The notes under the pieces: generated by a model
What the model was told of the DNA's origin: nothing
Seen by the model: only the letters and a program-made list of their open reading frames with translations
Database searches by the model: none
Shown: piece by piece, positions 413 through 56,417 of the stretch
Layout of the letters: every line of letters starts with the position of its first letter
Numbering within the stretch: position 1 is the first letter of the stretch
DNA from: a virus
Length of the DNA stretch: 64,000 nt
Virus record (IMG/VR): IMGVR_UViG_3300038425_000083
Span: 12,069-76,068 of that record
Reading direction: 5' to 3' (one strand)
Position numbers and translations under genes: made by a program

Positions 413-784
413 ATGAGACAAGCTGAAATAACTACAATAGACGAAGAGTTCAGAAGTAGACATCCTGGCCCAGTAGTAGATGGCTTAGAGAAGTCTAGCG
501 AATCTGCTAAGAAAGCCTGGCAAACAAGACGTAGAGGATTTAAGGGTATACGAAAAGTTATCCCAAGAGTCGGGAGAACAAAAGCGGAACAAGAGTTCTT
601 GAAGAAAGAGAACAAGGGAATCCAAAAGCTTTATGCCGATGTCTATGGTAAAAAGAAAGCAAGCAAGATCCTTCAACACGTCAAGGAGGCTACTCGGCAA
701 GGTTTGATAAAGCCTGGCATGAAGAAGACTCCGAGCAAATGGAAAGAGTATCTAAAGAAACGTGAGATAGAAGCAGGCAACTAA
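413..784 (+). CDS. basic tagged protein (ITTIDEEF leader; LEK|SSESAKKAWQTRR)
   Basis: AGGAG RBS; one copy of the repeated tag (K codon at 491); Lys/Arg-rich remainder. Confidence 0.75.
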   Translation: MRQAEITTIDEEFRSRHPGPVVDGLEKSSESAKKAWQTRRRGFKGIRKVIPRVGRTKAEQEFLKKENKGIQKLYADVYGKKKASKILQHVKEATRQGLIKPGMKKTPSKWKEYLKKREIEAGN

Positions 785-1596
785 TGAGTTGGTGCGACCT
801 TAGTGGATTGAGATTTGGCAAAGTAACAGTCGAAAACATGGCAGGCTCCACTACGAAGAGTTTGTTATGGAGATGTATATGTGATTGTGGCAGCGAAATT
901 GTAGTAGAGACAAATGCCCTCACTAATACTTTAAGTTGTGGACATTGTAAACCTGGCATAAGAAAGAGAGCAAAGACTAAACCTAATTATAGACATCATT
1001 GCAACATAAACTTTGTAGATAATCCCAACGAGGCAACCGACCTAACAGAAGGGAGACGTGCTGAATATAATCCGAAATACCAGTATGAGGGTCGATGGAA
1101 AGCCGACGTTGAACGTTATGAGAGGAGACATGAAATGATTTGTGAAAGATGCGGATGTGAACTGAAGATGGGTCTTGGTGATTTAACAAGAGGACAAGTT
1201 GTTGAACTTCTCGAGCAGGCCGTTCTGGATAAGAAGATAGATGATATCAAATTGTTCCGGTATGAAGGAAGTCGTGGAGCTTGGCCTTTTACCAAAGAGG
1301 AGGAAGCAATCTTAAGAAGTTATCTGCCTGGCTTCGAAGCCTATGAGTCAGGGGTTAGAAGAGTTATAAGAACAGATTCAGATCAACCCCCAGGCAAGAG
1401 AAAGTTTGTTAGAAAAGTTAGAACCAAAGATCGTAAGATGGAAGAACCTCCTGATCTTGAAGAGTTTGGGAAGAGTCTAAGAAACTTTGGAAGAGTTTCT
1501 GGTATAACAGGACGAGAAGGTCTTGACCTTAATGATGTAACGATTGGAAGAGACGAGTATGACCAAACTCCAAGGGACGATCCGGCAAACTTTTAA
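784..1596 (+). CDS. HNH/AP2-associated Cys-rich N-terminal domain fused to a copy of the scaffold C-terminal domain
   Basis: DLSGLRFGKVTV..WRCICDCG..SCG motif; segment 1183-1323 is 26/47 identical to the scaffold C-terminus; possible internal start ATG1135 after AGGAG. Confidence 0.7.
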   Translation: MSWCDLSGLRFGKVTVENMAGSTTKSLLWRCICDCGSEIVVETNALTNTLSCGHCKPGIRKRAKTKPNYRHHCNINFVDNPNEATDLTEGRRAEYNPKYQYEGRWKADVERYERRHEMICERCGCELKMGLGDLTRGQVVELLEQAVLDKKIDDIKLFRYEGSRGAWPFTKEEEAILRSYLPGFEAYESGVRRVIRTDSDQPPGKRKFVRKVRTKDRKMEEPPDLEEFGKSLRNFGRVSGITGREGLDLNDVTIGRDEYDQTPRDDPANF

Positions 1597-1620
1597 AACA
1601 TAAAAGTAAAGGAGCCTGTT

Positions 1621-1899
1621 ATGTGGAAACATAAAATTGAAGATGACGGTAAGATTTTATTCTGGAAAGATGAAGAGAATGATGGAGGACAAAGTCCATC
1701 GGAACAAAAGATGCAGACGTTTTGGATTTGGGATACAAGAGATCTTGTCGATCTAAGCAAGGACATCGACCAGGCAAAGCTTGACTATTCTAAAAAGTTT
1801 AAACACAATCATTCAAAAGAAGCTCGGAGAGTTATAAGAACAGAAAATGATTCCTCTCCGATGAGAATGAGAAAGTTTGAAGGACTTGTAGTACAATAG
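1621..1899 (+). CDS. hypothetical protein with RRVIRT motif
   Basis: AGGAG RBS; shares RRVIRTxxDxxP..RKF with ORF 784. Confidence 0.65.
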   Translation: MWKHKIEDDGKILFWKDEENDGGQSPSEQKMQTFWIWDTRDLVDLSKDIDQAKLDYSKKFKHNHSKEARRVIRTENDSSPMRMRKFEGLVVQ

Positions 1900-1907
1900 G
1901 AGCTCAC

Positions 1908-2753
1908 ATGATTGTTAAAGAAAAAGGCGGGTGGAGTGTTAAGTCAGAGAAGGGTAAAAACCTTGGGGGCCCATACAAGTCTCGAGCTCAGGCTAAGAAA
2001 CGTCTTGCAGAGGTTGAGAAGTTCAAACACATGAATAAATCAGTATCAAGCTATAAGACACAATCTCCCTGGCCTTGGGAAAAAAGTATACCAGATCAGT
2101 TTTATTACATCAATGAAGGCGGAGCCGATCTTGCAAAGACATCTGAAGGAGCTCGTAAAGCATGGGAGACACGTAGATCGGGTGGAAGTCGTAGGACAGA
2201 ACCTTTCCGATCAGGCGAGCCCAGGTTCACGAAAGAGGAAGAAGAGAAAGCTAAGCAGCCTACATGGGATAGTGTCCAGAAAGAAAAGGATGAATTGATT
2301 GGAATAGCCAGAGCTCATGGGATTGAAGTTGTAGATAGTTCTTATAACACTTTAGGAATCAAAGACCCGGAGAAGAAAGCAGACATATATGAAGGAAATG
2401 TTTCATTAAAGTTTTATCCCACACCGGTCGAAAGAGCAGGACAACCATTTAGTGCCCCTTGGACTAACGATCAGCATAAAGATATGATGGCTAAGTTTCA
2501 GCATATTAGAGATCAGGCAAAAGAGAAAGGGTGGAAAGTTGAGCCTCGAGCATTGCCCAATGTTCTTATAAGAGGCAAGTCAATAGGAAGTGCCCGAGCA
2601 GGAACAAGTCGATGGATGCCTTCATACTATGTGACATATCTTACTAAGCAGGCACTTATGACTGCAGCTCCACAACTGAAACCAAGACGACAGATGCAAC
2701 TTGACAAAACTCTTTATGTTGTCTTGGACTTGAAGAAGTCAAGAGAGGATTAA
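1908..2753 (+). CDS. tagged multi-module protein
   Basis: N-terminal small module (WSVKSEKGKNLGGPYKSRAQAKKRLAEVEKFK), LAK|TSEGARKAWETRRSGGS at 2136, C-terminal YVVLDLKK|S. Confidence 0.75.
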   Translation: MIVKEKGGWSVKSEKGKNLGGPYKSRAQAKKRLAEVEKFKHMNKSVSSYKTQSPWPWEKSIPDQFYYINEGGADLAKTSEGARKAWETRRSGGSRRTEPFRSGEPRFTKEEEEKAKQPTWDSVQKEKDELIGIARAHGIEVVDSSYNTLGIKDPEKKADIYEGNVSLKFYPTPVERAGQPFSAPWTNDQHKDMMAKFQHIRDQAKEKGWKVEPRALPNVLIRGKSIGSARAGTSRWMPSYYVTYLTKQALMTAAPQLKPRRQMQLDKTLYVVLDLKKSRED

Positions 2754-2936
2754 ATGACAGTCAAAGACTTATTTGAAAAGTGGTGGTCTGTTTGGCATTT
2801 GAGAGAAGGAATGGGCCCCGTGCCTGAAGAGCTAACAGTTAGGCACAAACTTGGCCCCGATGATCCAGGTGGTACATGGATGCTTAAAAATTTATTATAC
2901 ATAGCCTTTGTTGAAGGATACAAAGAACGGAAATAA
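2754..2936 (+). CDS. hypothetical protein
   Basis: 60-aa ORF tightly packed between neighbours, GAGGA RBS. Confidence 0.5.
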   Translation: MTVKDLFEKWWSVWHLREGMGPVPEELTVRHKLGPDDPGGTWMLKNLLYIAFVEGYKERK

Positions 2937-2937
2937 T

Positions 2938-3342
2938 ATGGCACTTACAAAACGATCAGCTATCGATCTTTTAGAAAAGGCTGTCATGGATGGTAAGTTG
3001 CCTGACAGTTTACTTTATCAAGTTGAAGGTGGGGAAAGGGTTAAGCTTGATGAAAAGCAAGCTGGTATTCTCTTGTCTTATACAGAAGACTTCAAACCAA
3101 CCTTCAGACCAAGCCGTCCTCCTTTACCGGCAAGGACTATTGAAAAGATTTCAGAAGACCTTAAAGACATCTACAAGATGAGAAGAGATGCCCAGTTTCA
3201 TCGTCCAGCATATCAAGTCTTTGATAATAGAGTAAGATACACAAGAGAGGAATGGCAGAAGTTAGAGAAAGCCGAACAAGCAAAAGAAGATGCTAAGTAC
3301 TCGTTCCCTAAAGCGAGAAGAGTTATAAGGTGTGAGGGATAA
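2938..3342 (+). CDS. protein with scaffold-like domain and RRVIR motif
   Basis: MALTKRSAIDLLEKAVMDGKLPDSLLYQVEG..ILLSY matches the scaffold C-terminus; start moved to ATG2938. Confidence 0.7.
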   Translation: MALTKRSAIDLLEKAVMDGKLPDSLLYQVEGGERVKLDEKQAGILLSYTEDFKPTFRPSRPPLPARTIEKISEDLKDIYKMRRDAQFHRPAYQVFDNRVRYTREEWQKLEKAEQAKEDAKYSFPKARRVIRCEG

Positions 3343-3344
3343 TT

Positions 3345-6300
3345 ATGGAATACGTCATTATAGAGAAATCAGCTGAAGGTTCTAAACGAGCATGGCAAAC
3401 ACGTAAACATGGCGGTTCTCATAAAGAAGCAGAGAAGCCTAAACCTAAAGGCCCGGAGATAGACGCTCTTTTAACTAAGGAAGATAAGCTAAAAGAACAA
3501 GCTCTAAGAAAAGAAGTCGAAGTTTTTTCTGACGGCGACCTTTCTGCTTATGTCCAAGTCCTGCGGAAAAAGTTACAAACGAAATCCTGGAACGAATTAA
3601 ATGATTATGAGAAAAGATTTTATCCTCTTGTTCTTGATGAGCAAAGCAGGAGAAGACGTAAAGCTCTTGGGGCTATATTTGCTATAGAGATACCAGAGGT
3701 GCGTCTTGAAGATGTCAAGGAAAGAAAATCTCAACCAAGGAAGGTTTTAATGAATTCACTTCATGTAATCATAGAAAAATCAAGTGAAGGTGCTAAGAGA
3801 GCATGGGAAACAAGAAGACATGGTGGAAAGCATCTTGGCCCCGAGAAGCCAAAGTCAGCAAAGAAAGAGTTATCAGAAAGAGTTAGAGAACTTTCAGATG
3901 AACAACTTCAAGCTACTCATGAAAGGCTTGACAAGATACCATATTCCCAGATGAAGCCTGATGAAAGGAGACTATCTCATCTTGTAGCTTATGAACTGAT
4001 AGAAAGAAAGAGATTAAGACCCATTTCTCAAGACCCAATGGGAAGTCTTGCCAGGCAGGCTGCTAAAAAGGAAAGCGATGAACAGAGACTAAGAAGGAAG
4101 GGGCCTATTGAAACCCCTGGATTACCTGAAAGAGAACCTGAAGTTGTTGAAGAATTTAAAGTTGGAGACAAAGTCAAACATCCTACTTATGGAGAAGGAG
4201 TTGTTAGTGAAGTTCGCAAGATGAAAACCGGGACACCAGTTTATTATGTTAAGTATCCAGGGCGTGATTTGGCCTTCGCTCATGGAGACGAAGAGCTTGA
4301 AAAGGTTGAAGACGTAGCTAAGCCCAAAGAAGAAGTAAGCATGGGTACCAAAGTTCAGAAGTTAAAAGATAAGATCGAACAACAGCAAGCCGAACGGTAT
4401 GCGAAAGACTATCCTCATGTTGAACCTCCTAAAGTTACAGTCAAAGAGGGAGGGAAATACATTCGAGTTGACGTTGGAACTTCTGGCAAATACATGGTTG
4501 AGAAGGACACCGGGAACATCTATGGTATCAAAGGCTACGGAGTTATTCATAGAGGTCATTTCTATGGGACTTTGGATACGATAGATGATTTTAACTGGGG
4601 CGACTATGCAGCGTTTAGGACATTGTCTTTGAAAGATAGAGAATTCAAGGCTGAAAAGCCAGCTGAGCCGTCAGGTGTTGTTAGCATGGATACAGTCAAA
4701 GAAGATGTTAAGAAAATGCAAGAGAAGATCAATGCTCCTTGGGTTCATGTCCAGTCTTCAGATTTAGGTGGAGCAAAGAACGTTTCTATAATCATAAAAG
4801 CCTCGATGCAAAAGAAAGAAGAGTGGCATAATAACATACTACAGAACTCTCCCTATACAATGTTTCATTTGCTAACAGGTGGGGTGTTAGAGCAATTTCA
4901 AAGAAGCCCTGATTTGGATAAACTCGGAGCATTTAGAAAGACAAAAGTTAAGAGTGTGGTTGAAGCTATTCAAAAGATCAATAGCTATTTGAATCCACCA
5001 TTACCGCCAAGGAGAAAAATGCAGATCAAGAAGGGACAGATGTTTGTTATCATAGAGAAAGCCAGAAAGATTGGTTCTAAAGATAGTAAGAAGAGAAAGC
5101 GTAGAGGACAGAAAGAAAAAGAATTATATGAATTTTCTCACAAAGCAGCGTATGGACATTTGCCGTCATCTTCAACTCCATTTAAAGATGACTCCATTAG
5201 ATTCAAGAAAGCTGATATCCAGGTTCAACCATTCACAAGGACAGTCAAGGGAAAGTTTCAAAGAGTTCAACAGTTCTTTAGACCTGGCAAGGAAAGCTAT
5301 CCAGGAACAGAGAAGGGAGTTAATGACTTCATAAAGGATCATGTCGGACTTAGCAACTATGGGCATATCGTTGCAGACGAAGCAAAGAAGGAAGTTGATG
5401 TTGACGTTGCTGCGACAAACGCTTTTATGTCTGTTATGGGTCATGTTGTTGATAAAAAGGAGAAGCCGTCCTTAATCGCTAAAATAGGGTCTAAAATCAT
5501 TTCAAGAGGTGAACAGCCTACAATCCTTAGGCAGTTAGTCCAGAAAGATAAAAAAGCCTTCCAGGGGCTTTTAAAAGAACTCTTTAATAGGGTTCATGGG
5601 GATGTTAGAGAATTTAAGATGGAAATGGGCAAGTCCGTTGAAGGAATGCCTGTTGAATCGGTTAGAGCTCTTGCTGTTAGCCAGGCCATGAGAGAACTCA
5701 AAAAATCAAAATCTCCCGAGAAGGAAGAACATTGGAAGTGTAATAAGTGTGGGCATGAATTAGATGCCCCACATGAAGAAATGCTTAAAAGAATGGTGAC
5801 TTGTCCTGAATGTGGAGGAGCAATGGAGGAACTTAAGAAAGCTGGCTCAAGCGATGCTGCTCATAAAGCATGGCTTAAAAGAGAAGCCGAAAGAAGAGCT
5901 CTAAGAACAAGAGAGCGTGAAGGAACTAAGTTAGATGAACTCTCAGGACTTCAAGAAGCTGCAAGGAAAACCCGGGAACGAATATTTGCTCCAGGGAGAA
6001 CAGTTGAAACTCGGGGTAAGCGTCAGCTTACAGGAAAGGTAGTCAGGATAGTTGGAGATGCCCAGGCAAAAGTTCAATGGGAAGGTGGGTTGATAACCAT
6101 TGAGCCACTCATAGATTTAAAGCCAAAAGTTGATTTAGATATAAATCATCATGACCACATAGTTAAGAAGGGAACGTCAGAAGGAGCAAAGAAGGCCTGG
6201 TCACAAATGCAACATCAAGTTGCAAAGATTGCAGGTGTTCAAGAGAAGGTTAGAACTAAACAAAAGAATCAAGAAGAGATAGAACGACAAAAGAAACTTA

Positions 6301-6841: not shown

Positions 6842-7212
6842 TGGAAAACGAATATTATACGACGCTTTGTTGTGCTATGACTCCGAGAAGAGTCATAAGA
6901 ACAAGTGAAGACAAGCCGGGTAAGGTTTGTGAGCCTGTTGAAACGGAACCCAAAGGATGGATTTGCCCAAGATGTGGGAAGTCTAATTCTCCGGAAGTTA
7001 GAGTGTGTGGTTGTTTGATACTACCGGGAACATTAGATCAACCGAATACATTCCCTGGCTTAAATCCGTTTGTTAATCCGTTTGTCGAACCTCTTTCTCC
7101 AAGTTTGCCAAATACAGGAGGATGGCCGGGGTCGGGAGTAACTGTAACAACTGACAATGTAACTTGGCGTTTTGCGAATGAGCTCATTTTAGGAGGTAGT
7201 AATGGATCTTAA
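6841..7212 (+). CDS. Zn-ribbon protein with RRVIRT motif
   Basis: GWICPRCGKSNSPEVRVCGC; PRRVIRTSEDKPG. Confidence 0.65.
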   Translation: MENEYYTTLCCAMTPRRVIRTSEDKPGKVCEPVETEPKGWICPRCGKSNSPEVRVCGCLILPGTLDQPNTFPGLNPFVNPFVEPLSPSLPNTGGWPGSGVTVTTDNVTWRFANELILGGSNGS

Positions 7213-11171: not shown

Positions 11172-14100
11172 ATGGAACAGATACAAGCTGTAAAGAAAAC
11201 AATTTATGGGACTCCTGTTTACTTTGTTAAATCCTCTGAAGGATCAAAGAAGGCATGGGAAACAAGAAGATATGGCGGAAGTCGCAAAGACCTTACTAAG
11301 ATAAAGCAAGATCATGAAGACCTAAAGAACAAATACAAAGACCTTATAGAATGGAGTAGAACAGACTCATGGGAGAGGCCAGAGTTCTCTGGTTCGCCCG
11401 AGACCGTAAAGAAGTTCATAGCAGACGTTCAAACTCATCATACGAAGATGGTCGATGCTTTTGGAAAGAACAAAACGAACATAGGTATCGAGGAGGATTT
11501 AGGAAGAGCAACCAAGAACCCTAATGTTCAAGGATCGTTTGGTAATGCTTTAAGTGCTCTTTATGGGATGGAAGATAAGATAAGATGGCTTAACCGCTAT
11601 CTCCCAAAGGAACAAGAGAAAGGGTGGAAAGGCAAGGAAAGATCAGAGGCAAGCTGGAAGGAGCTCATGTCAAAGTCATCTGAAGGAGCAAAGAAAGCAT
11701 GGCTAACAAGAAAATATGGCGGAAGTCACGCAGCATTAGAAGACAAGAAGTCTAGAGAATCTTTCAAGAAAGAGTTTTCGCTCAGTGATGTTGAAGGCGG
11801 TTCTAAAGATGATGTTCAGAGGCTTCACGAATCTTTAAAAAAGATAAATGAAAAAATACAGATTGATGGGAGAGGTAAACTATCCTTCAGTATTAAAGCC
11901 CCTCTTCAAAAGACTTGGTTCGGAGATTTCGATGAGGGAAATGATACCATAGAGATACATCCGAAACATCTTGAGAAAGTTGAACATGAGTATCTTCATT
12001 TTGTTTTTAAATACAGATTTGGAAATCCTATGAGAATAGGCCCAGATCATTACGATAAGTTTGGAAGTAAAAGATTTAGTATTCTTGACCAAAAAGAAAT
12101 ACCCGATTATGAATCGTTTAAAAAGGTAAAGTCAAAAGGATCATACGAGGATTATCATAAATTTGCAAGGGCGTTCGGTCGAAAATTATTTAAAAAGATA
12201 ACTCCTGAAGGTTTAGAAGATTCATTTGATGCATTTATTAAAAAGGTTGCAGATAATAAATCTTTAGATGGGGGGAAGAAAAAAGCGTTTACAGAACTTC
12301 TTCAAATATATAGGAACTTTTATACGAAACCTGGTATCTTAAAAAAGATGCAAGATTTGGTAGATCTCCCTGTTTATGCATTAGAACCTACAGAACTCTT
12401 TGCGAGAGCTGGGGAACTTTACATGCATGGAACAACTTGGTCTTTGGATGTTATCGAAGCTGATCTTACAGGAGAACAGGATTTAAAAGAGGACAAAGCC
12501 AAGAACGTAGCTTCAACTAAATTATTTCAAAGTCAGATTAAAGGGTGGGGAAACAAATATCTTAAAACCGGAGTTATGAGTAAATCTCTTTTTGTTATCT
12601 TTGAGAAATCTTCGGAGGGGGCAAAGAAAGCTTGGTTGACAAGGAAGTTCGGAGGAAGTCACAAAGGAGAAGAGAAGCCAAGTCTTAAGGGTCTTTCTTC
12701 TAAAGCTATTTTAGAGATGAGTCCAGAGGATCGTGAGAAATATCTCAAAGACATGGATTCATGGAATGAAAAGTTTGGCATTCCTAAAAAGATTGAGGTA
12801 TCCGAAGCCAACATTAACAGATTTGTCGATAAACCAGATGAGGCTATAAGAGAGTATAACAGCATCCAGCAGAAGTATGAGATAAAAAAGAAAACAAGTG
12901 TTAAGAAAACAAAGAAGTCTAAATCTAAACCTAAACCATTTAAGATGCAACTGGTCATTCCTCATGAGGAGACTGAAAGGAGAATTCATGAACATCTTCA
13001 ACAAGCGAAAAGAGAATCGTCAACGACACGTTACTTGGAAGGACGTACTCACGATGTGGACATATGGACAAAAGAGGATTTATTGGCTGCAGTGCCTAAG
13101 TCTCCAAAAGGTTCTCAATTCTATGCCAAAACAAATGTCCAAAACATCAAGCGGGTCTTAGAGTTTAAAAAACCAAATGAAGTAGGTGGGATTCATACAA
13201 TCGTTGTTCTCGAGAATGGTAAACCAGTTTATCAATACATTGATACCACAACAGAGAAGAACTCAAGGAAGAAATTTGTACGATCAAAGAATGTCGAAAA
13301 GAATATTGGGGAGATACGAGCCTTCTATAAGAAAGGAATGGGCAAAACTGGATATGACAAGCAGATGGGTACTATCCTTTCATTGATTGACCTGTATACT
13401 ATTCGGGTAGGAAGCAAAGCAGATGTTGATGAAGGTGTGAGGAAAGTTGAAGACTTAAAGAATAGAGCTCTTATTAAAGCGCCAAAAGATATAGCAAGAG
13501 TACCATATGGGCTACCATATGATCGAAACACGGTTTATTACGTTTTTATTAAAGATGGGCAAAGGCTTATCGGCCCATCCGAGAGAATGGATGAGATCAG
13601 CGATGAGATCAACGAAGCCAGGAAGATAAAAGATAAAGCTAAAGTAGAAACTCTTAAGCAAGAGAAGAAAGACCTTGTTAAACCAATGCCCGAGGATTGG
13701 AAGGAAGTTTATAAGTTAGGACACTTTGGAGCAACCCAGTTAGAGGCCAGGCATGTCAAGATCGAGCCCGAGTATAAAGGAGTTGGAACTAATTTTGGAA
13801 GTGTTGTTCACCTTGATTTCATTGGTAAATCTGGGGTTCATTGGGAGTTCCCAGTTAATGATACTGGAATTGCAGAAGCTTTAGCCGATCTGTCCAAAGG
13901 TAAGTCCGGGCGTGATCCTATATTCCCGGATGTTAAATATCAAAAGGTTACGGGTTTGCTCAAAGATAATTGGAAGTGTCTTGCAAAAGATTTTAGAACT
14001 TATCATGCAACAAAAACATTTGCTGAAGCAACTAAAGATTTTCCAGTCCCAAAGACAGAGCAGGAACTCAAATCAATAGAAGGTCAGATATTGGAAAGAG

Positions 14101-17959: not shown

Positions 17960-18340
17960 ATGAGCGATGAAATCTTATCCAAGGACCAATGGCTTGACAG
18001 TTTAAATGTAAAAGAGTGGACTGATTACAAGAGAGTGACAGACAGATATAATAAATTTAAGCCTCCTTCTAAACCGACACAAGAGGAGATTGATGAACGG
18101 CTAAGAAAAGCTTTTGAAGCATTAGATAATTTATCAAAACCCGCTCCTTCTCCAAGAGATGTTCTTCCGTCAAGACCATCTCCATTTCGACCAGGCCACG
18201 AACCGGGAAGAGATGCTCGAGAAACAGAAGCCATAGAGAAGATGATTGAAAAGATTCTTAGTGGAGATAAAGATCAACGACCAAAAGAAGTTGAAAAGCC
18301 AAAAGAAGAAAAGCCAAGACCACGGAGAGTTATAAGATAA
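17960..18340 (+). CDS. Pro-rich protein ending in RRVIR
   Basis: GGGAGG RBS before ATG17960; C-terminal RPRRVIR. Confidence 0.65.
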   Translation: MSDEILSKDQWLDSLNVKEWTDYKRVTDRYNKFKPPSKPTQEEIDERLRKAFEALDNLSKPAPSPRDVLPSRPSPFRPGHEPGRDARETEAIEKMIEKILSGDKDQRPKEVEKPKEEKPRPRRVIR

Positions 18341-18342
18341 GT

Positions 18343-18552
18343 ATGAGCACTCTTGAAATAAAATGTTCGATTTGCGGTGAAAATGTGGTATGGATTAGCG
18401 ATATAGGCACTTCTAATGACCTATTTCGTGACCATTTGAAAACTCATAAAGAGCATGACGTTGAAACCTTATACCCTGCGACATTTAAAAATATGAAAAT
18501 GATGGGATACTTTGAAGCTCCTATGGTCAGAAGGGTAATAAGGACAAGCTAA
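18343..18552 (+). CDS. C2H2-like Zn-finger protein ending in RRVIRTS
   Basis: CSICG..HLKTH; C-terminal VRRVIRTS. Confidence 0.6.
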   Translation: MSTLEIKCSICGENVVWISDIGTSNDLFRDHLKTHKEHDVETLYPATFKNMKMMGYFEAPMVRRVIRTS

Positions 18553-25944: not shown

Positions 25945-27615
25945 ATGGGCTTATTGGACAGATTTTTTAAGACAAGACTTGCAGCCGAAGTTGCAAAAGT
26001 AGAAGAACGTATGATTGGAGTATCAGAGTCAAGAGCACTTGAGAAGGCCAAAGAGATTCATCAAGTTTGGCTTGATGACTTAAGCAAGTCGAATGATGCT
26101 CAGCCAAAAACTCTTTTGCATGATCCTTTCCAGTTGCTCGAGTCGATGGGATACAAAGAACGTCCTATGATGATAACTTATGATACACTTAGGACTATGT
26201 CTGAAAGAAACCCGATCATAGCTGCAGTCATCAATACAAGAGTTAACCAGATTGCTGCTTTCTCGTCTCCTCCGAAGACTAAGTACGATATTGGTTACTC
26301 GGTAGAGATGAGAGATGACGAAGCAGAGCCCACGATTGAAGACGAGCGAAGGATGAAAGAGATCGAGAGCATGCTTGAGAATACCGGTGTTACTTCTTTG
26401 GCTCCTGAGGAACGAGATGACTTTGATTCTTTCTTAAGAAAGTTAGGAAGGGATTCATTGACCTTTGACCAAAGCTGTTTTGAAATAGTAGATGGTCGTG
26501 GAGGAAAGCCTGTTGCTTTCTATGCGGTTGATGCATCAACTATACGTCTTGCGACAACTCCTAAATACATGAAGGATGTTAGGGACTTTACTCTTCAAGA
26601 CATTGGCCCGGAACCTCAAAGATCAAAGGACACAAGATATGTTCAAGTTATAAGTGGAAAGGTTGTAAACACTTATACGGAAGATGAGATGTCTTTTGGT
26701 ATTCGGAACCCAAGAACAAACATCAAGCAAAATGGGTATGGGACTGCCGAGCTGGAGATTCTGGTCAATACGGTAACGGCTCATCTATGGGCAGAAGAGT
26801 ACAACCGAAGATTCTTTAGTCAAGGTAGTGCTCCTAAAGGGATTATACATTTTGAAGGTAACGTTCCAGAGAATCAATTACTTGCTTTTAGAAGACAATG
26901 GCATGCTCAAGTTATGGGAGTCTTTAATGCTTGGAGAACCCCTGTTATTGCGGCCCCGGCTAAACTTCAGTATACAAATCTTCAGATGTCTAACAGACAG
27001 ATGGAATATAGTAACTGGATTGATTATTTGATCAAACTGATTTGTGCAGTTTATCTTATTGATCCATCTGAGATTAATTTTGAACTAAGAGGCGGAGCCC
27101 AGTCTCAGGAAGGCCCACTGTTTGAAAGTCATTCAGAAACAAAATTGAAGATGAGCCGAGATCGTGGCTTAAGACCTTTCTTAAAGTTTATTCAATCTTG
27201 TATTAACAAGGACTTGATTTTTAGAATAGACCCAAGATATGAAATGAGGTTTACAGGATTGGATGCCAAGACCGAAGAGCAAATGTTAGAGTTAAGAATA
27301 AAGGAGATCACGAACTACAAGACCATAGATGAAGTTAGAGCTCTTGATGACCTGGAAGCTCTTGGCCCGGAGAGAGGTGGCGACTTGATCATGAATCCTT
27401 CGTATATCACATTCATGACACAGAAAGCTATGGCTCAGCAAATGGGCGGTGGTGGCGGAGCGATGCCTGGTAAAGAAGGAATGGACTTTGGAGAAGAGGG
27501 TCACGGATACGAAGGTATTGATTTTGGTGCCGAAGAAGGAATTGATTTTGGAAATCCAAATGTGGAACATCCAAATAAACTTGACTTCGGAAGGGAAGAG
27601 AAGGGACAAATCTAA
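25945..27615 (+). CDS. phage portal protein
   Basis: IIAAVINTRVNQ, RDSLTFDQ, FYAVDASTIR, RNPRT..GYG..ELE, NRRFFSQG..PKGII, YLIDPSEINF, DRGLRPFLKFI..IN, TIDEVR: motifs typical of SPO1/A511-type portals. Confidence 0.92.
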   Translation: MGLLDRFFKTRLAAEVAKVEERMIGVSESRALEKAKEIHQVWLDDLSKSNDAQPKTLLHDPFQLLESMGYKERPMMITYDTLRTMSERNPIIAAVINTRVNQIAAFSSPPKTKYDIGYSVEMRDDEAEPTIEDERRMKEIESMLENTGVTSLAPEERDDFDSFLRKLGRDSLTFDQSCFEIVDGRGGKPVAFYAVDASTIRLATTPKYMKDVRDFTLQDIGPEPQRSKDTRYVQVISGKVVNTYTEDEMSFGIRNPRTNIKQNGYGTAELEILVNTVTAHLWAEEYNRRFFSQGSAPKGIIHFEGNVPENQLLAFRRQWHAQVMGVFNAWRTPVIAAPAKLQYTNLQMSNRQMEYSNWIDYLIKLICAVYLIDPSEINFELRGGAQSQEGPLFESHSETKLKMSRDRGLRPFLKFIQSCINKDLIFRIDPRYEMRFTGLDAKTEEQMLELRIKEITNYKTIDEVRALDDLEALGPERGGDLIMNPSYITFMTQKAMAQQMGGGGGAMPGKEGMDFGEEGHGYEGIDFGAEEGIDFGNPNVEHPNKLDFGREEKGQI

Positions 27616-52132: not shown

Positions 52133-53680
52133 ATGGAAAAAGGCGGATGCGGAGCGATAGAGAGGGACTTTAGTTTTTGGATGCCTCTTGAAGTAGTTAA
52201 GGGGCAGAAGGGCGAAATGAGAATTGGAGGGATAGCTTCCGATGAAGAGTCCCATGATCTCCAAGGTGAAAAAGTTTTTGTCGATGGTTTAGATACTTCA
52301 TATTTGCTTCAAAGAGGTGCTTTTAATTGGGATCATCTAAAAGGCCCAGAAGATATACTTGGCGAGATTGATACTGTTCAAAAGCAAGAAAAGAAGCTTT
52401 ATGTTGAAGGTTTTTTATATCCCAAAGTTAAGAAGGCCATTGATGTATTCGATTTGATGCAATCTCTTAAAGAGTCTGGTAGTAATAGGAAGTTAGGGCT
52501 CTCCTTGGAAGGTAAAGTTAAAGAAAGAGATGAAAAAGATGCTAAGGTCATAAAAAAGGCCTGGATTAAGAACGTTGCCATAACATACAACCCAATTAAT
52601 CAAGGTGCCTGGGTTGATATGATTAAATCGTTGGGAAACTTTACTTTTGATAGTTGTGATAAAGACTGTTCCCGTTGTCCATTATGTGAAGCCAAAAAAG
52701 AAGTTAAATTGGAGCCGGTTAAGAAGGCAACAGCAACGCCTCCTTCTTTTATAGTTCAGGACGGTATCAAATACTATCCAAAAGATTTTGGTGAGTTAAA
52801 GAAAGCTGGCGAAGGTGGAACAAGTGGTTCCGGAGGAGCTGCTCCTGCACCGCCACAAAGTGGTGGTCTTGCTGCTGGACATGATAACCCGGCATCGTCC
52901 GGAGGGATTAGTGGTTCGGCTCTTAGGAGACAATCCTTAGATAAGAAAAAGAAAAAGACGACTTACGATGAAGAGCATGTAGGTCAGAAGGTTGAACCCG
53001 AGAAGTCCGAGACAGACAAGAAGAAAAAGAAAAAGATGACTAAGTCTGAAGTCTTTGAGTTTATTAAGTCTGAGGGAAATTCGGAGGATAGAGCTAATCT
53101 TCTTACTGATTTAGTATTTGCAATGATTGAAGTTGCACCGATCTTAGCAAAATCCAGCGAAGGAGCCAAGAAAGCTTGGATAACCAGACGTAAAGGTTTG
53201 ATTTCTCTTGCTCAGCAAAAGAAAAAGAAGAAAGACCCAAGAGATACCCCTGAATTTTGGGAAGAACGATACGGAAAGAAGAAAAAGGGTGCTGATGTTA
53301 GAACAACTGGAAAGGGAGTAACTCCAAGTCCTATTTTAAGTGTTAAAGAAAAGGAAGATTGGAAGAGGCATTCAAAGATGCCTAAGAAAGTACAGAAGGA
53401 AGCACCTAAAGAACTTGCTCCGACAGGGACAGCCAAACTTGTTGCTCATGAAATTCATAGAATAACTTCCATGTCTGATAAGGCCTTACTTAATCGAGCT
53501 ACCAAGATTACCGATCCTAATAAAATGAAGAACTTTTATCTTGCTGCAAAGTTGAAAGGAAAAGGCGATTTAGCCGGAGCAATAATTACTGCCGGTGGGA
53601 GAATTGGTATTAACCCGCATGAATTTGGTACTAATGCCAAAGAAACTACTAAAGAATTCCGAAGACAACTGTCGGCGTAG
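52133..53680 (+). CDS. prohead (capsid maturation) protease with long C-terminal extension
   Basis: DLQGE..GLD..GAFNWDH..LYVEGFLY..LGLSLEG..NVAITYNPIN; position before scaffold and MCP. Confidence 0.88.
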   Translation: MEKGGCGAIERDFSFWMPLEVVKGQKGEMRIGGIASDEESHDLQGEKVFVDGLDTSYLLQRGAFNWDHLKGPEDILGEIDTVQKQEKKLYVEGFLYPKVKKAIDVFDLMQSLKESGSNRKLGLSLEGKVKERDEKDAKVIKKAWIKNVAITYNPINQGAWVDMIKSLGNFTFDSCDKDCSRCPLCEAKKEVKLEPVKKATATPPSFIVQDGIKYYPKDFGELKKAGEGGTSGSGGAAPAPPQSGGLAAGHDNPASSGGISGSALRRQSLDKKKKKTTYDEEHVGQKVEPEKSETDKKKKKKMTKSEVFEFIKSEGNSEDRANLLTDLVFAMIEVAPILAKSSEGAKKAWITRRKGLISLAQQKKKKKDPRDTPEFWEERYGKKKKGADVRTTGKGVTPSPILSVKEKEDWKRHSKMPKKVQKEAPKELAPTGTAKLVAHEIHRITSMSDKALLNRATKITDPNKMKNFYLAAKLKGKGDLAGAIITAGGRIGINPHEFGTNAKETTKEFRRQLSA

Positions 53681-54211: not shown

Positions 54212-54907
54212 ATGGCAAAAGAAGAAGAAAAGAAAGAAGAAAAAAAGGAAGATTTGAAAAAGGTCGATGAGAAGATTGAAAAGAAAGAGCCCGAGATCAC
54301 TGAGGACGAACTTAAGAAATCTCTCAAAGACTTAACTGACATTATCAAGGCTGGACGTGCTCCCGTAGTTACCGAAGAAGAGGAAGAGGACGAAGACGAG
54401 GAAGAACTTGAAGAATCCTTTACCGGAAACTTTGAAGAAAACGAGACCATTGCGAAAGCTATTGAAGTGTCTGACTTCCTTGCCGATCTCGTAGAACAGA
54501 CAGAGACATCTCTGGAAGCTGTTGGAAAATTGGTTAAATCACTTCAAAAATCTGAGGAAGTTTTCGATCAGAAGTTCGTTGATGCCCTTGGAAATATTTC
54601 CAAGAAATTTGACGACATGGATGCTCGTCTAAAGAAAATTGAAGATACACCAGTTGCCGCAGGACCAAAGACAATTCAGAAGTCGGTTCAGAAGATCGAA
54701 AAATCATTTACGGCTTCCGGGAAAGAGGTTGAAGGAACAGATGAGTTAGCCGCTTTACCGAAGAGACAGGTCATGGCCCTTTTGGAGAAAGCAGTTGCAG
54801 ATAACAAGATCAAAGATTCAACGTTATTTGCTTACGAAGGATCGCCTGGCGTGTTTAAATTTAATAGTGAGGACGAAGAAATCCTCAAGTCCTATATCAA
54901 GAAGTAA
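54212..54907 (+). CDS. capsid scaffolding protein
   Basis: acidic/coiled-coil protein between protease and MCP; nine (L/I)xK|(S/A) sites. Confidence 0.78.
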   Translation: MAKEEEKKEEKKEDLKKVDEKIEKKEPEITEDELKKSLKDLTDIIKAGRAPVVTEEEEEDEDEEELEESFTGNFEENETIAKAIEVSDFLADLVEQTETSLEAVGKLVKSLQKSEEVFDQKFVDALGNISKKFDDMDARLKKIEDTPVAAGPKTIQKSVQKIEKSFTASGKEVEGTDELAALPKRQVMALLEKAVADNKIKDSTLFAYEGSPGVFKFNSEDEEILKSYIKK

Positions 54908-55004: not shown

Positions 55005-56417
55005 ATGATCTCAATGAAGGACTACGAGCAGACTGATGGTTTTGGGATGGCTACCTGGGAAGAAGTTGCAGAGTTGAACAAGGCTCTTGCTGCGGGCTAT
55101 GATATTCCTGCTACGTCAGGAGGTATCAGCGGTTCCGCTTTAAGGGTTGAGTCACTTGAATCTTCTTTGAAGGTGATCACTTACCAAATGCAACACATTA
55201 AGTTCTGGCAGAAGATCCCCAAATTGCCTGCTTATAGTACCGTTGAAGAGTACAACCAGTTGACTTCTTATGGTTCAGAAGCTGGTGCGTTTACTCCTGA
55301 AGGAGAACTTGGTGAATTCGATGATGCTACTTATCAAAGAAAGGTTTCATTAGTGAAATACCTCCAAACCGTTCGAAAAGTTACCCATCCGTTAACATTG
55401 GTTAGGGCAGCTCACGGCGACGTTGTAGGAAATGAAATCCGAAATGGTATCATGTGGTTAATCGGAAAAATCGAGAACTACCTATTCTGGGGAAACAGCA
55501 AGCTGAGACCTACGGGTGCAGAGGGTTATGAGTGGGATGGAATCAATATTTTGATTGATCCCTCTATGGTGATTGATGCTAAGGGAGAACCCCTTGGAGA
55601 AGACATCTTAGAAAGCGCTTCTAACACTATTGTTGAAAACTACGGTTTTCCAACTGATATCTTTATAGGTACAAGGCCGTTGGCGGATTTAGCTAAAGTA
55701 ATGTTCCCTAAAGAAAGGATAGTTGTTCCTTACAAGGAAGGTCAAGTTGGTGTGCCTTTAAATACCTTCGCTTCACAGGCTGGTATTTTGGCATTCAATC
55801 CTGACGTTTTCTTGAAGAAGAAGGCTTGTCCTGTTGCTGCCACTTCAGGCAAAGCACCTACCGCACCCTCAAGTGTTACTATAGCACAGCGAACAACTAC
55901 AGGGCTGGGAGGCGATTGGACGAAGACTGGCAACGCTTATGGAACTTACTACTATGTTGCAACATACGGAAACAGATTCGGAGAATCAGCTCCATGTGGT
56001 GTTCAGCACAATGCAAATGCTGCAATCACAGCCGATACTGATGAGATTACTGTAGCAGTTATGACAACTACCTATTCGATTGCTCCCGATTACGTGAACA
56101 TCTATAGGTCAGTTGCCAATGATGCAACTGGTACAAGATATCTTGTTTATTCAGGCCCGGTTGATGATCCCGGAACAAGCACGACCGGTAAAGCATGGGT
56201 TGATGTGAACGCTATCTGTGCTAATTGCCATAAAGTATTCTTGGGCGAGTTAACTCCTCAAGTTATTGCTTTTAAACAGTTAGCCCCTATGATGAAGATG
56301 GATTTGGCGGTTGTTGAGCCAAGTGTCCGTTGGTTACAATTACTCTATGGAGTACCTCAAATATATGCTCCTAAAAAGTGGATTATAATCAAGAACATTG
56401 GTGAAGCTTCTGTTTAA
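55005..56417 (+). CDS. major capsid protein (SPO1/A511/K-like)
   Basis: ELNK|ALAAG..GSALRVESLE, IPKLPAYSTVEEY, IE..LFWG, EWDG, Fn3-like insertion (YYYVAT..NRFGESAP), QLAPMMKMDLA..WLQLLYG.P..YAPKKW..IKN. Confidence 0.92.
   Translation: MISMKDYEQTDGFGMATWEEVAELNKALAAGYDIPATSGGISGSALRVESLESSLKVITYQMQHIKFWQKIPKLPAYSTVEEYNQLTSYGSEAGAFTPEGELGEFDDATYQRKVSLVKYLQTVRKVTHPLTLVRAAHGDVVGNEIRNGIMWLIGKIENYLFWGNSKLRPTGAEGYEWDGINILIDPSMVIDAKGEPLGEDILESASNTIVENYGFPTDIFIGTRPLADLAKVMFPKERIVVPYKEGQVGVPLNTFASQAGILAFNPDVFLKKKACPVAATSGKAPTAPSSVTIAQRTTTGLGGDWTKTGNAYGTYYYVATYGNRFGESAPCGVQHNANAAITADTDEITVAVMTTTYSIAPDYVNIYRSVANDATGTRYLVYSGPVDDPGTSTTGKAWVDVNAICANCHKVFLGELTPQVIAFKQLAPMMKMDLAVVEPSVRWLQLLYGVPQIYAPKKWIIIKNIGEASV

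Follow-up and report, generated by a model that had tools for sequence, protein, structure and literature searches.

It is known that the C-terminus of the scaffolding protein holds the capsid protein in P22 gp8, where it is a helix-turn-helix, in 80alpha gp46 and in pre-VP22a of herpes simplex virus (HSV). Scaffold mimicry by a protein that is not a scaffold is already known from CpmB of SaPI1, and capsid address tags are already known from T4, where, as reported by Mullaney and Black, the proteins IPI-III and Alt carry a capsid targeting sequence that is removed by gp21. In P22, according to the reports of Douglas and colleagues, the scaffold C-terminal domain fused to a foreign protein suffices for packaging. 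To our knowledge, how tailed phages select the non-structural proteins that go into the head has been worked out in detail in few models only, i.e., the T4 targeting sequence, the P22 ejection proteins and the P1 Dar proteins. Here we analyse a stretch of 64,000 nucleotides (the window), positions 12069-76068 of the 76-kb viral contig IMGVR_UViG_3300038425_000083, from an uncultured peat phage that, judged by its genes, is SPO1-like. In this phage an element of about 48 residues, which is the conserved C-terminal three-helix domain of SPO1-type scaffolds, is present not only in the scaffold, open reading frame (ORF) 54212, but also in ORF784 and ORF2938, which are carriers of the scaffold domain rather than scaffolds. 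The three copies of this module are as follows (the arrow marks a putative cut).

54755-54895, + strand: module copy 1, scaffold residues 182-228, with L-E-K193↓A and I-L-K226↓S
1183-1323, + strand: module copy 2, ORF784 residues 134-180, with L-E-Q-A and I-L-R-S, both lysines replaced
2941-3081, + strand: module copy 3, ORF2938 residues 2-48, helices 5-17, 24-30 and 39-48, with L-E-K↓A kept and the second site reading I-L-L-S

By BLASTP, scaffold residues 179-229 and ORF784 residues 131-181 align without gaps with 27 of 51 residues identical (53%, E 1e-13). Counted by hand over 54755-54895 and 1183-1323, the ungapped alignment has 26/47 identical residues, so the figure and the coordinates given in the first-pass annotation of this DNA are right, and the match that it had also placed at the N-terminus of ORF2938 is recovered between the scaffold and residues 2-48 with 48% identity and an E of 4e-8. 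ORF784 and ORF2938 match each other at 35% identity (E 4e-6). When a hidden Markov model (HMM) of the three copies is run on the six-frame translation of the whole 76-kb contig, just those three are found, with the next match at an E of 0.3-0.5 and with no copy in the prohead protease. In the AlphaFold2 (AF2) models the three helices are alike in two contexts, the scaffold C-terminus and the ORF2938 N-terminus. Neither Pfam nor NCBIfam has a family for the module or for either carrier.

The homology of ORF784 and ORF2938 to the scaffold is confined to the module of about 50 residues. Neither has the full scaffold architecture of coiled coil plus end domain, and both lack the acidic N-terminal part and the series of Lys sites that scaffolds have. 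The earlier description of the two carriers as unrelated proteins has to be amended, because both have the peptide RRVIR downstream of the module and are therefore not wholly unrelated.

The head genes that bear on the identity of the scaffold, together with the portal, are as follows.

52133-53680, + strand: prohead protease, 515 aa (PHROG 1028, E 4.5e-39)
54212-54907, + strand: head scaffolding protein, 231 aa (PHROG 15087, E 1.7e-10; SPO1 gp3.3; AF2 model)
55005-56417, + strand: major capsid protein (MCP; PHROG 752, E 9e-100)
25945-27615: portal

ORF 54212 is a scaffold of the SPO1 gp3.3 type, as had been supposed, on the grounds of its match to PHROG 15087, its homology to gp3.3 (29% identity, E 6e-15), the position of its gene upstream of the MCP gene, and its long helix followed by a small C-terminal domain. 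The AF2 model has an acidic N-terminus, a helix of about 70 residues (76-145), a disordered linker and the C-terminal three-helix domain, with helices 184-196, 202-210 and 219-228 and a predicted local distance difference test (pLDDT) score of 84-90. The protease gene is followed by two small ORFs, the scaffold gene and the MCP gene, and in SPO1 the protease, scaffold and MCP genes occur in the identical order. The MCP shares 46% identity with the MCPs of Bacillus phages and 42% with SPO1 gp6.1. Note that the alignment with gp3.3 extends into the module, which is homologous to the C-terminal end of the gp3.3-type scaffolds, and that the module profile, run on the SPO1 genome, has as its sole match the C-terminus of gp3.3. 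The claim that the shared element is the C-terminal domain of the scaffold is thus upheld. In the scaffold the module lies at the terminus where P22 gp8, 80alpha gp46 and HSV pre-VP22a have their coat-binding elements, and the MCP is presumed to be its partner. It differs from the P22 gp8 domain in having three helices.

A profile search of 1.84 billion representative proteins gives 28 matches, all with the identical helix pattern, to which further search added more, and in that search the module is found solely in scaffolds and in several non-scaffold architectures. The first architecture, that of ORF2938 and its like (126-170 aa), has an N-terminal module, a helix with R-Y-(S/T)-R-x-E-W and a C-terminal RRVIR or K-F-Y-R-K-I-E-V. 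The second (81-101 aa) has an N-terminal CxxC, the module and a C-terminal motif of the K-R-L-L-R-V or R-R-F-L-R-P type, and the third (about 150 aa) has another N-terminal domain followed by the module and the motif. ORF784 belongs to the 81-101-aa CxxC-module class, fused behind a Cys-rich domain. In a tree of 68 modules, the backbone of which is unresolved, the ORF784 module clusters with P0043, P0047 and P0042 (support 87-94), the ORF2938 module clusters with P0041 (support 100), neither clusters with the scaffold of this phage, and the non-scaffold copies have long branches. The idea that the modules were recently copied from this phage's own scaffold is therefore not supported: the tree puts both modules with metagenomic non-scaffold families, so they are old lineages rather than recent copies. 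For ORF784 in particular, an origin as a recent copy of its own scaffold is rejected on the tree placement. ORF784 and ORF2938 are members of older, metagenome-only, previously undescribed families.

The two accessory genes and their internal features are as follows.

784-1596, + strand: ORF784, 270 aa, with a Cys-rich N-terminal domain, CxxC, module, RRVIR and a charged tail
1122-1137, + strand: GAGGAG (1122-1127) and in-frame ATG 1135 (Met118) inside ORF784
1357-1371, + strand: RRVIR of ORF784, 11 residues after the module
2938-3342, + strand: ORF2938, 134 aa, with an N-terminal module, a linker, a conserved helix with R-Y-T-R-E-E-W and a C-terminal RRVIR-C-E-G
3316-3330, + strand: RRVIR of ORF2938, 3 residues before the stop

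Residues 5-94 of ORF784 match PHROG 374 with an E of 1.7e-10, the match covering only positions 196-268 of the 617-position profile, and the N-terminal domain is an Atlas lead at 0.89. It is a Cys-rich zinc-ribbon domain of a type that is also found attached to HNH endonucleases of phages; the catalytic HNH (beta-beta-alpha metal) motif is not found in ORF784, with no match to PF01844 or to another Pfam HNH family even at an E of 5. Met118 is the exact start point of the stand-alone small CxxC-module proteins, M-I-C-E-K/R-C-G, as aligned with P0044, P0052 and P0048. ORF784 is a zinc-ribbon domain fused in frame to a small CxxC-module protein, and ATG 1135 may be used as an internal start. A full-length homologue of ORF784, of 148-473 aa, was not found, and a tblastn search with the ORF784 unit and P0066 against cultured phages gave no match. 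The ORF2938 family has nine members, with P0041 at 60% identity.

We then consider the lysines of the module in relation to the prohead protease. In a 23-row alignment made from the scaffold homologues (34 including the scaffold itself), 13 Lys columns are at least 90% conserved, and in 9 of the 13 the next residue is Ser/Ala in at least 80% of the rows, mostly with Leu/Ile/Val at P3, while the composition-based expectation for Ser/Ala after Lys is 15% (binomial P 1.5e-5). The scaffold thus has about nine conserved [LIV]-x-K-[SA] motifs, two of which lie inside the module. The precursor of a Twort-like MCP (5lii, 463 residues) reads V-V-K24-S25, and in 9row, 9rox and 9roz the same MCP is a 439-residue chain whose first residue aligns to S25, directly after K24; from the chain lengths, the 439-residue deposits would be the mature MCP. 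A literature search found no published specificity for a Herelleviridae protease, and the K↓S site rests on these deposit lengths in the PDB. By alignment to 5lii and 9row, the equivalent MCP site here is L-N-K26↓A27, which is probably the MCP maturation site. The scaffold motifs agree in type with the maturation site of the Twort-like capsid protein, and the protease at 52133-53680 is presumed to be the enzyme that cuts them. The suggestion that K↓S/A is a protease motif is thus credible, from both the conserved scaffold columns and the Twort-like MCP deposits. As side observations, a stretch of the protease at 52868-52942 (G-G-I-S-G-S-A-L-R and flanks) copies the N-arm of the MCP at 55086-55160, just downstream of the probable K26↓A27, and the MCP N-terminus matches the protease family PHROG 1028.

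The two sites within the module behave as follows.

Site 1, L-E-K193↓A: Lys in 40/40 scaffold copies and 27/30 non-scaffold copies; replaced by Gln in ORF784 and by Arg in two others
Site 2, I-L-K226↓S: Lys in 40/40 scaffold copies and 3/30 non-scaffold copies; replacements L, R, T, F, W, M, V and E

The residue changes that had been noted are correct, namely L-E-Q-A and I-L-R-S in ORF784, and L-E-K-A kept with I-L-L-S in ORF2938, in whose family Leu is invariant at the second site. As to the loss of cleavage lysines that had been read from them, it is a class property at site 2, while at site 1 the Lys is usually retained. Protease resistance as a general design is thus not borne out, because the site-1 Lys is mostly kept and the Gln of ORF784 is the exception. 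In addition, the charged residues R185, E192, K193, D202 and E209 are conserved in both scaffold and non-scaffold copies, which points to a shared partner. With the scaffold-specific Lys and the free C-terminus gone, the binding could just as well be weaker or different.

Outside the module, a recurrent element is RRVIR, of which the window has copies at 1357-1371, 1825-1839, 3316-3330, 6886-6900, 18323-18337 and 18529-18543. Of the 30 non-scaffold carriers, 18 have the general form [KR]R-phi-phi-R no more than about 16 residues from the C-terminus, and no scaffold has it; ORF784 is counted among the 18 but has its motif about 75 residues before the stop. Many small ORFs of the 76-kb contig, of its relative G001 and of L013, a contig from lake/sediment, end in the basic motif, with R-R-M-L-R-P and similar forms in G001 and with F-R-R-I-R-P or K-R-M-F-R in L013. 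The motif lies within 10 residues of the stop in 5/10 copies in the 76-kb contig and in 5/7 in G001, as against about 9% expected. A DNA-level signal (promoter or Shine-Dalgarno) is ruled out, because RRVIR is always in frame, its codons vary and the relatives conserve the peptide pattern with different residues. It is also noted that ORF1621 (1621-1899) has a paralogue shortly before the start of the window, at 11684-11920 of the 76-kb contig, to which it is 35% identical over 62 residues (E 6e-7), and that the extension RRVIR-T-E-N-D, common to ORF1621 and ORF784, is not in this paralogue. Another repeated peptide, S-S-E-G-A-K-K-A-W-E-T-R-R, has 15 copies in 11 proteins (window 506-53165), nearly always directly after Lys, and no copy in G001.

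Based on these sequence data, we propose, tentatively but as quite possible, that ORF784 and ORF2938 are minor head-core or cargo proteins that dock via the scaffold-like domain. In this proposal, the diverged domain lineage outside the scaffolds, present in uncultured relatives as small proteins that usually have [KR]R-phi-phi-R near the C-terminus, would include ORF784 and ORF2938, which would dock by the conserved face of helices 1-2 at the scaffold's place in the assembling prohead and would thereby enter the prohead as minor core or cargo. The prohead protease would probably cut after Lys in [LIV]-x-K↓[S/A]. The scaffold, with about nine sites, would then be chopped up and leave, while the accessory copies would be processed less or differently because the second module site is lost, and both are lost in ORF784. 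The location of both genes, between terL and the portal gene, counts in favour of the proposal. It is noted that in P22 cargo is loaded by scaffold fusion, and therefore the proposed mechanism is physically workable, although the P22 fusion system is artificial and the scaffold domain there stays at the free C-terminus. By comparison with T4, the likeness would lie in an address tag by which non-structural proteins reach the core of the prohead and in its coupling to prohead-protease sites; in ORF2938 the element is N-terminal and, as read from the sequence, contains a putative L-E-K↓A site, and in ORF784 the module is internal and without a Lys site. Moreover, the T4 element is a peptide of about 10 residues for which no scaffold homology is claimed, with Glu-specific sites, whereas here the element is a folded, scaffold-homologous domain of 48 residues with putative Lys-specific sites in a Herelleviridae-like lineage.

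Several points weigh against this proposal. The module ends the scaffolds, with at most 5 residues after it, whereas each accessory protein continues for at least about 20 residues beyond it. The accessory copies also lack the basic residues of helix 3 that are specific to scaffolds (K222 and K226), and should the coat be contacted through helix 3 or the free C-terminus, as it is in P22 and 80alpha, the docking may be weak or absent. The carriers of 81-101 residues hold no evident cargo domain. The accessory module proteins are dispensable, because the relative G001, with a TerL 60% identical and a like layout from terL to scaffold, has by profile search only the scaffold copy of the module and no extra copy. 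In addition, the fold searches do not link the module to any solved scaffold domain, including that of P22 gp8, for which a structural match was not obtained: the PDB sequence profile of the scaffold gives coiled coils only, Foldseek of the scaffold model against the PDB gives a best E above 2 and nothing over the noise, and the VIA wide search with the ORF2938 model gives a best Z of 4.1, to CARD domains, although small helical domains score poorly in both of the latter searches.

If the proposal of docking and head entry is true, the module would be a natural address module for the large T=16 capsids of the SPO1/Twort type, a lineage that includes therapeutic staphylococcal and listerial phages, and the scaffold with two Lys sites versus the accessory version partly without them would provide a built-in contrast for release versus retention. 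The novelty lies in a complete folded domain of the scaffold, coupled to a second motif, that makes up several families of accessory proteins in an SPO1-like lineage, and in the class-specific loss of one Lys site in the accessory copies. The analysis also defines several protein families that had not been described, and a basic motif that recurs at C-termini.

An alternative, which we regard as unlikely while taking it seriously, is that the carriers are assembly modulators or mini-scaffolds rather than cargo, occupying the scaffold's sites on the MCP and tuning nucleation, stoichiometry or capsid size in the manner of SaPI1 CpmB or of the T4 minor core proteins gp67 and gp68. CpmB resembles the proteins here in being a small helical non-scaffold protein with the capsid-binding element of a scaffold, and it competes with the 80alpha scaffold for a site on the capsid protein (PMC5644958). 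The small carriers of 81-101 residues have little besides the module, and the one CxxC at their N-terminus might allow a zinc ion to join two chains. However, the sporadic distribution, with the extra copies absent from G001 and SPO1, is a poor fit to a core morphogenetic role, and both ORF784 and the ORF2938 family have further conserved regions for which a protein that only competes would have no use. Note also that CpmB is encoded by a satellite and redirects the capsid size, whereas here the carriers are encoded by the phage. Their genes are not of satellite or competing-element origin, lying in the phage's own long terL-to-portal block, 1.7-4 kb downstream of terL (itself just upstream of the window), and the shared element here is a whole folded domain that is internal or N-terminal rather than C-terminal.

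By contrast, the module might be a general peptide- or protein-binding domain and not a coat binder, with its acidic face, for example, binding the [KR]R-phi-phi-R tails, and the carriers might work away from the capsid, or might serve as adaptors or as units that associate with themselves. We give this the same small chance as the modulators. The module and the basic motif occur together in the non-scaffold carriers as counted above and never in the scaffolds, the motif ends many other small ORFs in all three contigs, and E192, D197, D202 and E209 are conserved. The peptide binding is, however, drawn from co-occurrence alone, and the C-terminal position in the scaffold matches, as far as is known, the coat-binding position of every scaffold studied. 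A combination of the two functions, which seems quite improbable to us, would be a two-part loading system in SPO1-like environmental phages, where the scaffold end domain would serve at once to anchor to the coat and to receive basic tags at the C-termini of many small proteins, and the accessory proteins with module plus basic motif would be adaptors or chain formers that raise or regulate the head cargo intake.

Still more doubtful is the idea that the carriers are decoys against co-infecting related phages or satellites, with a protease-resistant scaffold mimic poisoning the head assembly of the competitor; the first-pass annotation had likewise entertained a competitor-phage inhibitor. 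The genes are indeed accessory, sporadic and fast-evolving, with the non-scaffold copies on long branches, and ORF784 has lost both lysines; yet nothing points to a competitor, the first Lys site is retained in most members of the families, and the decoy would be expected to hit its own phage too because the ORF784 module is 53% identical to that of its own scaffold. Finally, similarity by chance or by shared amino-acid composition has practically no likelihood and is refuted by the E-values of 1e-13 to 4e-6, the 28 database matches with one helix pattern and the AF2 helices alike in two contexts.

With regard to the setting, the region under study is present in peat and wetland metagenomes from 2017-2020, with no RNA run listed among the public runs that contain it, and over 700-3400 there are zero differences, where covered, in contigs of four other peat/wetland runs, none of which spans the whole stretch. 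An identical scaffold protein is recorded on a 179-kb contig, and therefore the 76-kb record probably covers less than half of the genome; additional module carriers may lie outside it. Searches of IMG/VR, the GTDB genomes and the JGI metagenomes with the module or the ORF2938 family gave no related locus except L013, a single contig of 2.85 kb. In L013, the gene of a 383-residue protein (1351-2502) has as neighbours a small gene of the CxxC-module kind and small ORFs that have the basic motif at their end; read by eye, the protein has motifs like those of metal-dependent amidohydrolases, H-A-H-I-D-R and H-M-H-V-D-Q.

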